Shown: positions 4,312-24,465, numbered from the stretch's first letter. The stretch is DNA of 32,000 bases from Limnohabitans sp. 63ED37-2 (GCF_001412535.1 NZ_CP011774.1:3260539-3292538); one strand, 5' to 3'. The notes: generated by a model from the sequence alone, not told the origin. Numbers and translations are program-made.

Positions 4312-4349
4312 GGCCCGGTAGCTCAGTTGGTAGAGCAGCGGATTGAAAA
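4312..4349 (+). pseudogene. tRNA-Phe 5' half (nt 1-38, ends at the anticodon loop); left junction of the accessory region
   Basis: 38/38 identical to 17564-17601 (acceptor 5' strand, D arm, anticodon stem 5' strand and loop TTGAAAA). Identity stops at 4350. Confidence 0.85.
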
Positions 4350-4750
4350 AGTCCGCTCGGCGCTAGAACTTCAGCATTAATGGCGCCTGCAAATTGGGTG
4401 CAAAACGGTGCGGCACACTCTGTGCTGACAGTGCCAAATCCCCCCTCTTAAAGTAAATCAAAGTAGTTCAAAACTGCTGTGCTGGCAGCTGCTTGGTTGT
4501 CTGTTGGCGCAGCGCTTCAGCTAGCGTAGCCCCCAGCTTTTTCCAGCGTCCTGCAACGCATTTACAAGCCCTACAGCACGCTTTTAGCCCAGCGGGCAGG
4601 CACTGGGTGCTGGATGGAGCGTTTTTCGCTTGTATAGCTTCTGCTGCACATCTAGCGATTTGAGCGTAAAGAAAAATTACGCTCGTGAGACACCTACGTC
4701 GACTAATTAAGACCCCCGCATAGGACGAAAGGAGATGAATAGCTAAATTG

Positions 4751-4788
4751 TTGACAGCAACAATTACAGTGTCATAATTACACTGTAA
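4751..4788 (+). promoter_or_regulatory. Sigma70-like promoter (TTGACA, 16 nt, CATAAT) overlapped by a perfect 9-bp inverted repeat operator
   Basis: TTGACA lies at 4751-4756 and CATAAT at 4773-4778. The palindrome is TTACAGTGT (4764-4772), a 7-nt spacer, then ACACTGTAA (4780-4788). An AAGGA Shine-Dalgarno sequence and the ATG at 4799 follow directly. Confidence 0.5.
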
Positions 4789-4798
4789 AGGATTAAGC

Positions 4799-5530
4799 AT
4801 GTCAGTTATTCAAAGCCACAAAGCCTTTTGGGGACCCATCGCAGAGCTTATCGAACGAGCAAGGATCGTTAGCAAAGGTATGGGTCTTAACTCTGAAAAA
4901 ATGACCGATAGGCTTATCAGATATTACGCAGCCCAAGGCGTATTAGACAAGCCGGACAGGTTGGGGCGCGATGCCGCCTACAACTACCGTCACCTTCTCC
5001 AGTTGCTGACGGCAAGGCGCCTATCTGAGAAAGGTGTGTCGTTGGAGATCATTGGTCGGCACAACTTATCTACAACCACTGAACTACTTGAAAAGGGACT
5101 GATCAAGCCTGTTGAGATGGAGGTGTTTGTCACACCCCCGAAGAGCGAGGCGAATGTCATGGTTCCTAAGACATTGAATGGCAGTCCTCTCGCCATGGTC
5201 GATGTGCTGTCAGAAGTGCGGGCGTTGAAAGACCAGTTCAACAAGGATCATGAGGAATTGCGTCGAGTGCGTGAAGCCGTGGGTGAATTTGCGTCACAAC
5301 TCAAGGAATTTCATGCGGGGCTGGACGGAATAAAAGTTGAGCTGGAAGCGGTAGTTCGACTAGTCAAAACAGGCCTGGACAAGATGTATCAAACCGAGGA
5401 CAAATTCGGATACATGCTCGAAAAGAATCTCAGTGCTCACAATGAAAAATTCAACTATTTGGTTGAAGGCATTGAACGGGTTGAGCGCACCTTACTCAAG
5501 ATAGAAATCAACAGCGGTCAGGCCAAATGA
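4799..5530 (+). CDS. Hypothetical protein with MerR-like HTH/wing segment and C-terminal coiled coil
   Basis: Good promoter and RBS. The segment LIRYYAAQGVLDKPDRLGRDAAYNYRHLLQLLTARRLSEKGVSLEII resembles the RyYe..GLl.P.R....R.Y....l..L..I..l...G.sL.eI core of MerR-family DNA-binding domains. The C-terminal 100 aa is heptad-like and charged. Confidence 0.65.
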   Translation: MSVIQSHKAFWGPIAELIERARIVSKGMGLNSEKMTDRLIRYYAAQGVLDKPDRLGRDAAYNYRHLLQLLTARRLSEKGVSLEIIGRHNLSTTTELLEKGLIKPVEMEVFVTPPKSEANVMVPKTLNGSPLAMVDVLSEVRALKDQFNKDHEELRRVREAVGEFASQLKEFHAGLDGIKVELEAVVRLVKTGLDKMYQTEDKFGYMLEKNLSAHNEKFNYLVEGIERVERTLLKIEINSGQAK

Positions 5531-6060
5531 GGACCAATATGGAAATCATCTTTCGACCAATGGCCTATGACACAAGGATGAATCCGATCAATCGAATGTT
5601 CGGCTATGTCCGCTCATTAGAGTCAGACACGGTATCGGTGACGGCTAACCCTATGCCAGGATCGCCACTCTCAATTGTTGTTGATCAACTTAACCTCGAT
5701 AGAGCCCGCATCCACAAGGCTGCAGTGAAAAGTAACAGGCACTCAAAAATTGCCGTACTAGAGAGCATGACGCCAAGGATTTTCTTAATACCGAAAACGA
5801 CAGGAGACAAAGAGGCATCGGCGATCATCGATGCGCTGATTGAAAACGCCGCAGAGTGCGAGTCGGAAGTTCTGAACTTCACACACTACGGACTGATCAG
5901 GGGTAATGTGCCGGAAGCGGAAGTGACCAGCATCTTTGAACGTTTTGCAGAAAAAAGCAATGAGTCAAAGATCAAGGTAATAGTTTGGGACGTAGACGCA
6001 CGACACGTTCAGACTTTTCGCTCTTTACACCAAAAACATTTCCTTGGACGTCGGCAATGA
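5527..6060 (+). CDS. Hypothetical protein, no recognisable domain
   Basis: The ATG overlaps the upstream stop (ATGA at 5527-5530), and its own stop overlaps the next ATG (ATGA at 6057-6060). Composition looks coding. I recognise no motif. Confidence 0.6.
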   Translation: MRTNMEIIFRPMAYDTRMNPINRMFGYVRSLESDTVSVTANPMPGSPLSIVVDQLNLDRARIHKAAVKSNRHSKIAVLESMTPRIFLIPKTTGDKEASAIIDALIENAAECESEVLNFTHYGLIRGNVPEAEVTSIFERFAEKSNESKIKVIVWDVDARHVQTFRSLHQKHFLGRRQ

Positions 6061-6866
6061 AATCTAGGAAACGAAACGGATTGCTTGCCCTCATGCTGAT
6101 GAGCCTAGTGGGCTTGGTGGTGTATTCCATATGGATAGAGCCGCAACGTATTGAAGTTGTTCAGCATGACATGAGTGCCCAATCAGAGGAAGTGTCATTC
6201 AGGTTGATACAAGTGTCAGACTTACACCTTCGTGGGTATGGTGAGCATGAAAAATACATTGCTCAAACGATCAAGGATATGAATGCGGATCTTGTGGTGC
6301 TAACAGGGGATGCGATTGATCGACAGGAGGCTATACCCTGGCTACGATCGTTCGTGAAAGAGTTGGGCACTGTCCCTGTTCTCCATGTCCTTGGAAACTG
6401 GGAACACTGGAGTGATTTGAGCCTAGAGTCATTGAACAGCACGGGCGTGAGGCTGTTGCTGAACGAAAGATGGACGCTAATAAAAGGCCAGAGACGTCTG
6501 GAAATTATTGGGTTAGATGACTACACGGCAGGACAACCCGACCTGGGTCTCATTTCCATAAGTTCATCATTCAGTCGAGATAAATCCACAGTGCTTGTAC
6601 AGCACTCTCCAGGATTTTTTGATCAAGCCAGTGTCACTCGAGAAATGGGCGCACAACGATTTGATTTGTGCCTTGCTGGGCATACACATGGAGGACAGGT
6701 GGCGATATTTGGTTGGGCCCCGATGAAGCCAGTGGGCAGTGGGCGTTTTACAGCAGGTTTTTACGATGTACCAGGTTGCCGTCTATACGTATCACGTGGC
6801 TTGGGTACATCTGTCATGCCCATCAGGCTGGGATCGAGGCCAGAGGTGGCTGTGTTTGAATTTTAA
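6057..6866 (+). CDS. Membrane-anchored calcineurin-like metallophosphoesterase (YaeI/YkuE-like)
   Basis: The internal ATG at 6057 is translationally coupled to the upstream gene. It has an N-terminal TM helix (LLALMLMSLVGLVVYSIWI) and the metallophosphoesterase motifs VSDLHL, LTGDAID, GNWEHW and GHTHGGQ. Confidence 0.8.
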   Translation: MKSRKRNGLLALMLMSLVGLVVYSIWIEPQRIEVVQHDMSAQSEEVSFRLIQVSDLHLRGYGEHEKYIAQTIKDMNADLVVLTGDAIDRQEAIPWLRSFVKELGTVPVLHVLGNWEHWSDLSLESLNSTGVRLLLNERWTLIKGQRRLEIIGLDDYTAGQPDLGLISISSSFSRDKSTVLVQHSPGFFDQASVTREMGAQRFDLCLAGHTHGGQVAIFGWAPMKPVGSGRFTAGFYDVPGCRLYVSRGLGTSVMPIRLGSRPEVAVFEF

Positions 6867-6880
6867 GCGGTGAAACAGAA

Positions 6881-23259: not shown

Positions 23260-23700
23260 ATGACAGCACTTACAGGTTTGAAATTGACGGCGGCACAGAA
23301 GCCCACGCAAATGAGCCCCGTTCAGCAACGCCGAAACAAGTTGGCAAAACGCTTGTGGGAACAGGCAGAGTTGGCAAAGGCACAGCAAACGGGTGGCACA
23401 TTTGCACCCAAAAAGTTCCGCTCGATTACAGATGCGAACACTGGCGAACGCAAGCAAGTTGAGCAATCCAAAAAAATCAAGCAGTGGTGGTTCGTTGCAG
23501 ATAGTGGCAAGTTGGTGTTGAGCGTGAGATACGGCACCAAAGTGCTTGAGTTGGCAAAGGGCAAGTGGGCAGTGGAAGTGGGTAGCGAAAAGGATTTGGT
23601 GCCTACGCTTGAACTGCTGAAGGGTGCGGTGCTGGGTGGTGAGTTGGATGCACAGATTGAAGCAGCGTCCAACAAACTGCGTGAGGGCTTTGGAGGGTAA
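23260..23700 (+). CDS. Conserved island backbone protein of unknown function (146 aa)
   Basis: An AAAGGA RBS precedes the ATG at 23260. It is a homologue of 9436-9882. Confidence 0.75.
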   Translation: MTALTGLKLTAAQKPTQMSPVQQRRNKLAKRLWEQAELAKAQQTGGTFAPKKFRSITDANTGERKQVEQSKKIKQWWFVADSGKLVLSVRYGTKVLELAKGKWAVEVGSEKDLVPTLELLKGAVLGGELDAQIEAASNKLREGFGG

Positions 23701-23713
23701 GGATTGGGGGTAG

Positions 23714-23779
23714 AGGGTATGGTTTATTGAAAAGCAGGGTTTTTGCCACGCTACTTGGGTAGGGTGAAAAACCGTGCTT
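23714..23779. repeat. Island 2 intergenic repeat, copy B
   Basis: The 35-bp block is identical to 20552-20586. The equivalent hairpin (23730-23744 with 23767-23779) has one mismatch. Confidence 0.55.
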
Positions 23780-23830
23780 ATCGATAAACAGGGGCTGTTG
23801 ATGCAGCAATGTGTGGGCACTAAATACTTG

Positions 23831-24169
23831 ATGAACAAATATTTGGTGACCGTGCGTGTAGGTGGGCAGTTGGTGAAAACAGCAGTATTTGCTGACAGCA
23901 CCATTCACGCAAAACTGCTGTGTCAATACAAGTATGGGATGAACAGCATTGCTGTAAGTCCTGTGCGTGTAGATGAAGCAGAAGATGACAGCACATTGCT
24001 TGACAGCACCATCAAGCCCAAGCCTCCAGCAACACCAGCACAAGCCCGCATCAACTCGCTCAAGCAAGGCGTGGAGCGTAGTAGAGAGCAACTACACGCA
24101 GAACGCGAGCGACAACGACAACAGCGTGAAGCAGAACGCAGACGCAAGCAACAACAGCAACGCTTCTAA
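23831..24169 (+). CDS. Small conserved island protein with Gln/Arg-rich tail
   Basis: The ATG at 23831 gives MNKYLVTVRVGG..., homologous to 9273-9422. The tail (KPKPPATPAQ..., ERERQRQQREAERRRKQQQQRF) resembles 8988-9242. Confidence 0.5.
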   Translation: MNKYLVTVRVGGQLVKTAVFADSTIHAKLLCQYKYGMNSIAVSPVRVDEAEDDSTLLDSTIKPKPPATPAQARINSLKQGVERSREQLHAERERQRQQREAERRRKQQQQRF

Positions 24170-24419
24170 CGCTGCGTAGTGCTGTGCTTGACAGCGTAAT
24201 GCAACGCTGAAATGTTGCAAAACGGCGTGAATATGCGGGTTATGGCGACGAAATGTAGTGATTTAGAAAAACACGGCGACATCAATGACAGGCATAGTTA
24301 AAATGGTGCGAGATACTTTGCAAGCAGCGTTTTGCGAAATGCAGCAAAAACACGCACACCCCACTTTTGCAACGCTGCAGATGCTTGTGCTACAATGCAT
24401 TATCAGTTTGGGGACAGCG

Positions 24420-24465
24420 TTGAAAATCCGCGTGTCGGCAGTTCGATTCTGCCCCAGGCCACCAG
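24420..24465 (+). pseudogene. tRNA-Phe 3' half (anticodon loop to CCA plus 1 nt); right junction of the accessory region
   Basis: 46/46 identical to 17595-17640. It is preceded by non-tRNA sequence, so no cloverleaf is possible. Confidence 0.85.

Follow-up and report, generated by a model that had tools for sequence, protein, structure and literature searches.

Evidence that two related integrative islands of opposite polarity occupy a single tRNA-Phe gene in Limnohabitans

A 32,000-nucleotide stretch of the genome of Limnohabitans sp. 63ED37-2 (NZ_CP011774.1:3260539-3292538; hereafter the window, to whose first letter all positions refer) contains one intact tRNA-Phe(GAA) gene that lies between two fragments of the same gene, a 5′ half and a 3′ half, spread over 20 kb. 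Our analysis indicates, with a probability that we place at about 0.9, that two independent but related islands reside in this single tRNA-Phe gene in opposite polarity, and that both have apparently recombined within the anticodon loop, TTGAAAA. Island B (17602-24419, plus strand; ~6.8 kb) is an integrative island of the usual polarity, with a displaced 3′ fragment at its far end, and island A (4350-17594, minus strand; ~13.2 kb) is of reversed polarity, with a displaced 5′ fragment at its far end. An earlier note on this DNA had read the whole interval as island DNA; its island-borne nature stands, and it is refined here from one block to two islands, independent of each other and opposite in polarity, whose inner ends come together at the intact gene.

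Results

Layout of the split tRNA-Phe gene

ARAGORN called a single tRNA-Phe(GAA) in the window, at 17564-17639 on the plus strand, and the Rfam tRNA model made the same call with 68.2 bits; neither fragment (4312-4349 or 24420-24465) scored as a tRNA in the Rfam scan. About 6.9 kb downstream of tRNA-Phe, ARAGORN placed tRNA-Asn (24524-24599), tRNA-Asp (24626-24702) and tRNA-Gly (24714-24789). The earlier note had claimed identity of one fragment with nt 1-38 of the intact gene and of the other with 17595-17640, and realignment by repeat search and direct reading bore out both. The displaced native 5′ half (4312-4349, plus strand), which runs through the anticodon loop and forms the outer junction of island A, matches 17564-17601 at 38/38 positions. 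A loop copy followed by the displaced native 3′ half (24420-24465, plus strand), at the outer junction of island B, matches at 46/46, and the repeat search extends this block to 24420-24468 against 17595-17643 (98% over 49 nt), the 46 identities being followed by one mismatch. Identical matches of 38 and 46 nt to an adjacent gene are far beyond chance. Reading of the sequence also upheld the statement that the two blocks overlap only in the 7-nt loop TTGAAAA (17595-17601).

The only intact tRNA-Phe gene in the window can be divided into three parts: 17564-17594 from island A, the shared loop at 17595-17601, which is the presumed crossover site, and 17602-17639 from island B. The loop copies that bound island A, 7 nt at either end, are attributable to neither island nor chromosome. 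Base composition shifts exactly at the tRNA fragments, and what the note had judged by eye to be an AT-richer interior between GC-rich flanks has a GC content of roughly 0.48-0.50 inside against 0.61-0.62 outside (left flank 0.618, right flank 0.613; 0.495 for 4350-17563 in island A and 0.480 for 17640-24419 in island B). The integrases and insertion sequence (IS) elements that it had seen within the interval 4350-24419 prove, by Pfam and NCBIfam models and repeat search, to be four tyrosine recombinases, of which two are large integrases and two are small, and two identical IS30-family copies. Since the intact gene is preceded by one 5′ fragment and followed by one 3′ fragment, the layout is not that of a same-polarity tandem array.

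Four occupancy states at one locus

An exact look-up of the window's response regulator protein found it not on record, and an exact metagenome DNA search for the native promoter-tRNA junction gave no match; the empty site was reached via a response regulator 96% identical to the window's, which led to 10 metagenome contigs. In nine of these (L053, L055-L062) the locus is empty and reads without interruption kinase, response regulator, tRNA Phe-Asn-Asp-Gly, MBL hydrolase. When the window's flanks are joined (4194-4349 plus 24427-24840) they align to the empty contigs at ~94%, unbroken over the junction, with the native promoter region and terminator included. These contigs of close relatives therefore carry, intact, the ancestral gene that had been proposed (4312-4349 joined to 24427-24464), within the uninterrupted Phe-Asn-Asp-Gly locus next to the response regulator that a comparison of joined flanks had been expected to reveal; far from being conserved core DNA, the 20-kb interval is missing from all nine. 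Flank alignment also shows native upstream DNA of the empty sites running unbroken into the 5′ fragment at 4312-4349, and 24420-24465 is continuous with the native terminator and tRNA-Asn, as it is in the empty sites and in contig L094.

Three other states occur beside the empty one. Island B is present alone in the tenth contig (L054), in L016 and in Limnohabitans sp. 2KL-51 (L011); in the last, what is essentially the window's island B adjoins the native response regulator-tRNA-Phe junction and is succeeded by a second usual-polarity island, and island A is absent. A reversed island is present alone in L094, where the order Gly-Asp-Asn-Phe is followed by an IntA-like gene and the native 3′ half, terminator and downstream tRNAs are kept; there the DNA 3′ of tRNA-Phe is 94% identical over 6845 nt to window positions 24403-31244. 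The state with both islands recurs outside the window in L081 and L089, which have a usual-polarity and a reversed integrase on opposite sides of the tRNA, in variants that differ from ours (in L081 an IntA-like protein at 69% identity is paired with an IntB-like protein at 75%), and in L033, where an island B with IntB at 84% accompanies a degraded or deleted remnant of a reversed island. These different pairings of variants favour independent insertions.

Five versions of the gene were lined up. The native promoter region accompanies the gene at empty and B-only sites, and an island-type upstream region accompanies it at A-only and A-plus-B sites; the native terminator follows it at empty and A-only sites, and island terminators follow it at B-only and A-plus-B sites. 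Because its upstream region and its terminator both differ from the native ones, the intact copy in the window is island-borne on both sides, as the earlier note had held, and the 7-nt loop alone cannot be assigned. In L054 the two copies of the 3′ half, that of the intact gene and the displaced native one, differ in the T stem, which directly identifies the former as island-borne.

Promoter and terminator elements

The upstream regions were compared by reading of the sequence. Native tRNA-Phe has an extended −10 element (TGCTAGAAT) at 4293-4301 on the plus strand, and the same element with the same spacing is found in L053 (empty) and L054 (B-only). In the window this native promoter would now serve only the displaced 5′ half and read into island A. 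A second extended −10 element (TGCTACAAT), at 17543-17551 on the plus strand and 12 nt upstream of the intact tRNA, belongs to island A and is a putative promoter of the intact gene. Among reversed elements, searched with a less strict extended −10 pattern, TGnTAnnnT ends 9-14 nt upstream of +1 in 24/29 and TACAAT is found there in the other 5, so that 29/29 have a −10-like hexamer at that distance.

Downstream of the intact tRNA, a terminator scan found a terminator-like hairpin of island B (17645-17674, plus strand), with a 13-pair stem and a T run, which is conserved in L011. It differs from the native terminator-like hairpin (24469-24502, plus strand) found by the same scan, which is identical in L094 and has one substitution in L053. 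As a separate observation, the distal arm of island B contains a promoter-like site with an upstream TG (TTGCAA, 18 nt, TACAAT; 24367-24396, plus strand) that points at the displaced 3′ half and the tRNA-Asn-Asp-Gly cluster.

Two islands with a common backbone

IntA and IntB, the two large integrases, are 46% identical and are divergently transcribed from either side of the intact tRNA. Moving outward from the tRNA, both sides have an integrase, then a recombinase of ~190 aa consisting of the catalytic domain only, on the opposite strand, and then a DUF6641 gene on the integrase strand. Because this outward gene order is identical on both sides, we regard the interval as two homologous elements mirrored around the tRNA. 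The motifs TGMRxGxE, SLRHTYAT and HYSKL, read by eye as candidate parts of the catalytic set (Arg, Lys, His-x-x-Arg, His/Trp, Tyr), are invariant between IntA and IntB, and all four recombinases exceed the Pfam PF00589 gathering score of 27.1. A sequence search of the PDB with IntA matched no solved structure, and no specific NCBIfam model scored above its cutoff for IntB and its relatives. Only two relatives of the integrases were found in IMG/VR, and the islands are therefore not typical prophages.

In island A, IntA (438 aa; 14582-15898, minus strand) matches PF00589 with 33.8 bits and has SAM-like N-terminal domains; its gene lies on the strand opposite to tRNA-Phe and is read away from it, and the protein is 96-97% identical over its full length to copies in L002 and L063. 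The small recombinase, sRecA (12234-12854, plus strand; PF00589, 93.3 bits), has a catalytic domain only and is 90% identical to its L071 homologue over residues 2-185; the second IS30 copy, which starts at 12789, cuts its C-terminus and replaces the last ~ten codons. The DUF6641 gene (9436-9948, minus strand; PF20346, E = 3e-15) is 79% identical to the L071 homologue and is a paralogue of the island B gene at 23236-23700. The order of these three genes matches that in the stand-alone islands L071, L072 and L029. At the other end, the distal arm (4350-4634, plus strand) is homologous to the DNA beside the 5′ fragment in stand-alone reversed islands (L065, 76% over 308 nt; L071, 69% over 332 nt; L072, 91% over 82 nt), and position 4350 is for that reason taken as the genuine end of the island. 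Its 5′ fragment lies upstream with 38/38 identity, as 5′ fragments do in L029, L065, L071 and L072; an island of this type occurs alone in L094, and island A is missing from the B-only loci L011, L016 and L054 and from the empty sites.

In island B, IntB (430 aa; 17751-19043, plus strand; PF00589, 33.3 bits) shares its strand with the tRNA, from which it is 111 nt downstream, and is 98% identical to the L018 protein and 96% to that of L011; an exact-match look-up of the protein returned one 3-kb contig only. sRecB (21330-21914, minus strand; PF00589, 90.5 bits) is conserved in L011, L033, L024 and L012, and the DUF6641 gene (23236-23700, plus strand) matches PF20346 and phrog_31551. In the counterpart of the island in L011, proteins are 77-98% identical and the DNA is 89% identical over 4.9 kb. 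Island B has three features expected of a usual-polarity island in an anticodon loop: an adjacent integrase, a 46/46 repeat of the 3′ part starting from the loop, and relatives with empty and B-only sites. The position of its repeat edge, at the loop edge exactly or within one base, is shared by 8 other islands of its clade.

Polarity follows the integrase clade

A scan of one genome per species with an alignment of IntA and IntB yielded 51 loci, mostly from Limnohabitans and other freshwater Comamonadaceae, and a metagenome scan with IntA added 80 further loci. Wherever a relative of IntA (at least 62% identical) had a tRNA nearby, this was a reversed tRNA-Phe, on the opposite strand upstream of the integrase (29/29 loci). 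Several contigs of this clade break at the tRNA and keep just the 5′ half, in reversed orientation. The IntB-like clade has a co-directional tRNA in 34/34 genome loci, usually 110-200 nt upstream of the integrase, with Phe (19), Lys (9), Met (4), Cys (1) and Ser (1) as targets. In a neighbour-joining tree of the integrases the reversed elements fall in one clade. Four stand-alone reversed islands (L029, L065, L071 and L072; 7.5-11.5 kb) are each bounded by an intact tRNA-Phe on the side of the integrase and, on the other side, by a 5′ fragment, and the shared backbone is seen in 3/4 of them (L029, L071 and L072).

In 5/5 reversed islands checked, identity between the intact gene and the fragment stops at the 3′ edge of the loop, and in 9/9 usual-polarity islands its beginning falls on the 5′ edge or at most one base away.

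More distant relatives and serial insertions extend this picture. A sister clade with an integrase 53% identical to IntA (L119 6873-16249; L110 and L111) has the 5′ half of tRNA-Phe beside the response regulator, and its integrase gene is inverted and lies beside the small recombinase, ~5 kb from the intact tRNA; in a further clade (50%; L127 and L133) a tRNA-Met is found just downstream of the integrase and convergent with it. Two usual-polarity islands stand in series in L011 (3055-11158), a same-polarity, B-B tandem array, and L074, L085 and L086 have only a 5′ half beside an IntA-like gene, which is what a series of two reversed islands would leave; these are probably A-A arrays. Several records of metagenome-assembled genomes with this Comamonadaceae-type locus bear the titles Nitrospira lenta, Bordetella parapertussis or Akkermansia muciniphila (L008, L021, L033 and L044) and look like mislabelled bins.

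Cargo and other features of the islands

Next to its distal arm, island A contains extra cargo (4799-7689, plus strand) that Pfam resolves into a MerR-like protein, a 177-aa open reading frame (ORF), a metallophosphoesterase, a 106-aa ORF and a DUF6876 protein, all co-directional with the displaced native promoter. The block from ~4634 to 9009 (~4.4 kb) to which they belong has no counterpart in L071, where the DNA downstream of DUF6641 and the distal arm are ~200 nt apart. The first IS30-family copy (7847-8907, plus strand) is 1061 nt long with 36-nt terminal inverted repeats, and its transposase scores 312 bits with NF033563 against a cutoff of 80; the second (12789-13849, minus strand; 1061 nt) is 100% identical to it in inverted orientation. 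The pair brackets 3.9 kb of the island and could form a composite transposon or promote inversion. Between IntA and the attachment (att) site, a 384-aa ORF (15980-17134, minus strand) fuses a C-terminal HicA-toxin domain (PF07927, E = 7e-8) to a large N-terminal region without assignment; this is variable cargo, the closest relative island, L063, having different DNA at that place. A macro-domain protein (10589-11922, minus strand) lies downstream of a 234-aa protein without a family match, in a layout that recalls DarT/DarG; PADLOC defence models matched none of the island cargo proteins, these two included.

Other elements recur across the family. The small recombinase of ~190 aa is conserved in both island types (L029, L071, L072, L011, L033, L013, L010 and others), always on the strand opposite to the integrase, and could be a resolvase, an invertase or an integration accessory. 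Copies of the hexamer ACGCTG are found repeatedly in both arms, integrase-proximal and distal, of either type (17700-17745 and 24370-24380; L010, L024, L071 and others), and these repeats may be arm-type binding sites of the integrase. The orphan Rfam motif Polynucleobacter-1 RNA (RF01718) was found in island A at 10091-10189 (plus strand; 55.6 bits), divergent from the DUF6641 gene and 143 nt upstream of it, and at the same relative position in two usual-polarity islands, one in a Polynucleobacter genome (L013 18925-19062, minus strand; 94.8 bits) and one in Limnohabitans DCL3 (L010 17859-17972, minus strand; 53 bits). It was found neither in 6 other islands nor in island B, in which an ORF (22783-23181, minus strand) takes its place. 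It may belong to the components of this island family as an RNA motif.

Discussion

Understanding how a tRNA gene came to be split on both sides requires a definition of what each island would have brought with it. The attP of island B is predicted to hold the part of the gene from the loop to the 3′ end together with a terminator, beside the integrase, in the order GGGGACAGCG, TTGAAAA, 3′ half, island B terminator. On insertion this part would be joined to the upstream half of the gene, and the native 3′ half would come to lie at the island's opposite end. For island A, attP is predicted to hold a promoter-like element and nt 1-38 beside a divergently transcribed integrase, in the order island A promoter and 5′ half, TTGAAAA, AGTCCGCTCGG, and insertion would join these to the downstream half of the gene and leave the native promoter and 5′ half at the opposite end of the island. 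Once both islands are in place, the gene would consist of the island A promoter and 5′ half, the loop, and the island B 3′ half and terminator, leaving the native halves 20 kb apart; either order of insertion would yield the observed structure. Since the two halves supplied by the islands match the native ones exactly, the mature tRNA keeps its sequence.

The insertion is of an ordinary kind, site-specific and directed to the anticodon loop. Integrases that target tRNA genes classically have a 7-bp overlap with core sites (PMC8371274), and the seven shared nucleotides, bordered in the target by the inverted arms of the anticodon stem, match that layout. Both integrases probably exchange strands within the loop, as the edges of the identity blocks suggest. 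Seen from the integrase gene, TCCGC comes first on the integrase side of the overlap in both types of attP, a consequence of the symmetric anticodon stem, and the overlaps in the two directions, TTGAAAA and TTTTCAA, agree at 4/7 positions. When GCGGA-TTGAAAA-TCCGC is compared with its own reverse complement, both stem arms and 4/7 loop positions are shared, including both outer dinucleotides, and we propose that this near-palindrome may explain why polarity has flipped at tRNA-Phe only. One further idea, that the distal arms are the decayed other half of the tRNA and that attP ancestrally spanned the whole gene, was dropped: ungapped identity to the tRNA half was near random, at 4-11 of ~31 positions in 9 usual-polarity islands and 5-11 of 38 in 5 reversed ones.

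Each island has counterparts among known systems. Williams reportedly included an anticodon-loop sublocation in a 2002 classification of tRNA-gene integration. Integration there that restores the 3′ part of the gene is the standard textbook type; the Islander collection holds 2083 islands with an anticodon-centred attP (PMC4383910), and for the SSV1 integrase the overlap region is the anticodon loop (PMC8371274). Island B resembles these usual anticodon-loop islands on every point tested, having an adjacent tyrosine integrase, restoration of the gene from the loop to the 3′ end and a displaced 3′ fragment at the far end; it differs in that IntB and its relatives are uncharacterised integrases of freshwater Comamonadaceae. 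To our knowledge, the backbone of small recombinase and DUF6641 has not been described previously.

For island A, the relevant precedents are the reverse-orientation integrative elements reportedly described by Zhao and Williams in 2002 (J Bacteriol 184:859). PMC6563490 and PMC1635311 cite that study, and PMC6563490 describes recombination in the 5′ part as considerably less frequent. In the Islander data a 5′ tDNA fragment accompanies 159/3919 islands (PMC4383910), and the tRNA-gene half used by the pTN3-like integrases of Thermococcales is the 5′ one (PMC8371274). The restored gene is said in the same review to retain its original promoter with very few exceptions (PMC8371274). Island A is like the reverse-orientation elements in its displaced 5′ part upstream and its integrase beside the restored gene, and it would likewise have to supply the promoter. 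What sets it apart is that reversal extends to an entire integrase clade (29 loci) at a single target, tRNA-Phe, with the identity edge at the anticodon loop, and that this clade is the sister group of usual-polarity elements with the same backbone. The window also resembles the 125 tandem arrays at single tDNAs recorded by Islander (PMC4383910), since several islands, each with its own integrase and gene fragment, share one tDNA. In contrast to those arrays, its islands lie on opposite sides of the intact gene and not in series on one side, and therefore the loop is the only part of the functional gene that could be native. A limited literature search found no explicit description of this two-sided state, and other examples may exist. 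Island B is thus ordinary and island A is of a rarer, reversed kind; both mechanisms are already known and neither is new. What is uncommon is that both kinds occupy one gene from opposite sides and are close relatives with a shared backbone.

The final structure is also formally compatible with a history in which a single 20-kb composite, carrying its own complete tRNA-Phe, inserted once in the loop, disrupted the native gene and compensated for the loss with its internal copy. The outer junctions share only TTGAAAA, and recombination between them would release just such a composite and restore the native gene. We consider this very improbable, as each half is found alone at the same locus, A in L094 and B in L011, L016 and L054, each has its own tRNA-adjacent integrase and its own distal arm homologous to those of stand-alone islands, and the other loci with both islands (L081, L089 and L033) pair different variants. 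Still less credible is an artefact of assembly, or a local duplication or rearrangement of the tRNA that has nothing to do with site-specific integration. Repeats of tRNA genes often break assemblies, and many related contigs do end at the tRNA; here, however, the repeats are just 38 and 46 nt, the layout recurs in independent assemblies (L081, L089 and L033), the junctions fall exactly at the loop edges, as in the 5 reversed and 9 usual-polarity islands checked, and composition changes exactly at the fragments.

An alternative that we think unlikely, yet worth serious consideration, accepts the origin from two islands and holds that both are now immobile relics, the chimeric gene being fixed. 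The truncation of sRecA by IS30, the ~4.4 kb of extra cargo and two IS copies in island A, and the existence of degraded relatives (L003, L033 and the frameshifted integrase of L029) are what one would expect of such relics, and family annotation identified no recombination directionality factor among the island proteins. Against this, both large integrases are of full length and 96-98% identical to their counterparts in other genomes, neither att repeat has a mismatch, and four occupancy states coexist among populations with ~94% identical flanks; these observations point to islands that may still move.

Several points weigh against our preferred reading of two independent insertions by recombination in the loop, with the island A promoter driving the gene. 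The count of a single tRNA-Phe gene covers only the 32,000-nt window; the loop marks only the shared block and not the exact positions of cleavage; and the integrase tree was built by neighbour joining, without support values. A strict sigma-70 −35/−10 scan called neither the island A nor the native tRNA-Phe promoter. The arguments for present-day mobility and for use of the island A promoter come from sequence and from polymorphism among populations, and island A may be impaired, given its truncated sRecA and two IS copies.

We also entertain a more speculative scheme, which on present evidence we regard as quite improbable. The reversed clade could have arisen from a usual-polarity ancestor through the near-palindromic stem-loop, by wrong-way synapsis and capture of a promoter and 5′ half, and, where both polarities reside together, recombination between the outer junctions could release a 20-kb composite with a complete, expressed tRNA-Phe gene. 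If true, the release of such composites would allow mobile elements to pick up entire tRNA genes.

The occupation of one gene by two islands implies that a gene of an essential type can stay identical in sequence while its promoter region, its terminator and all but seven of its bases are replaced by mobile DNA. Annotation and synteny tools that use tRNA genes as core markers would miss such a replacement. The two islands also form a natural matched pair, with integrases that are ~46% identical, the same backbone and target and probably the same crossover, and opposite polarity. Together with the four states found in environmental populations, this pair offers a convenient system for asking what sets the orientation in which a tyrosine integrase inserts, a question that is relevant to the engineering of integrases for targeted insertion.

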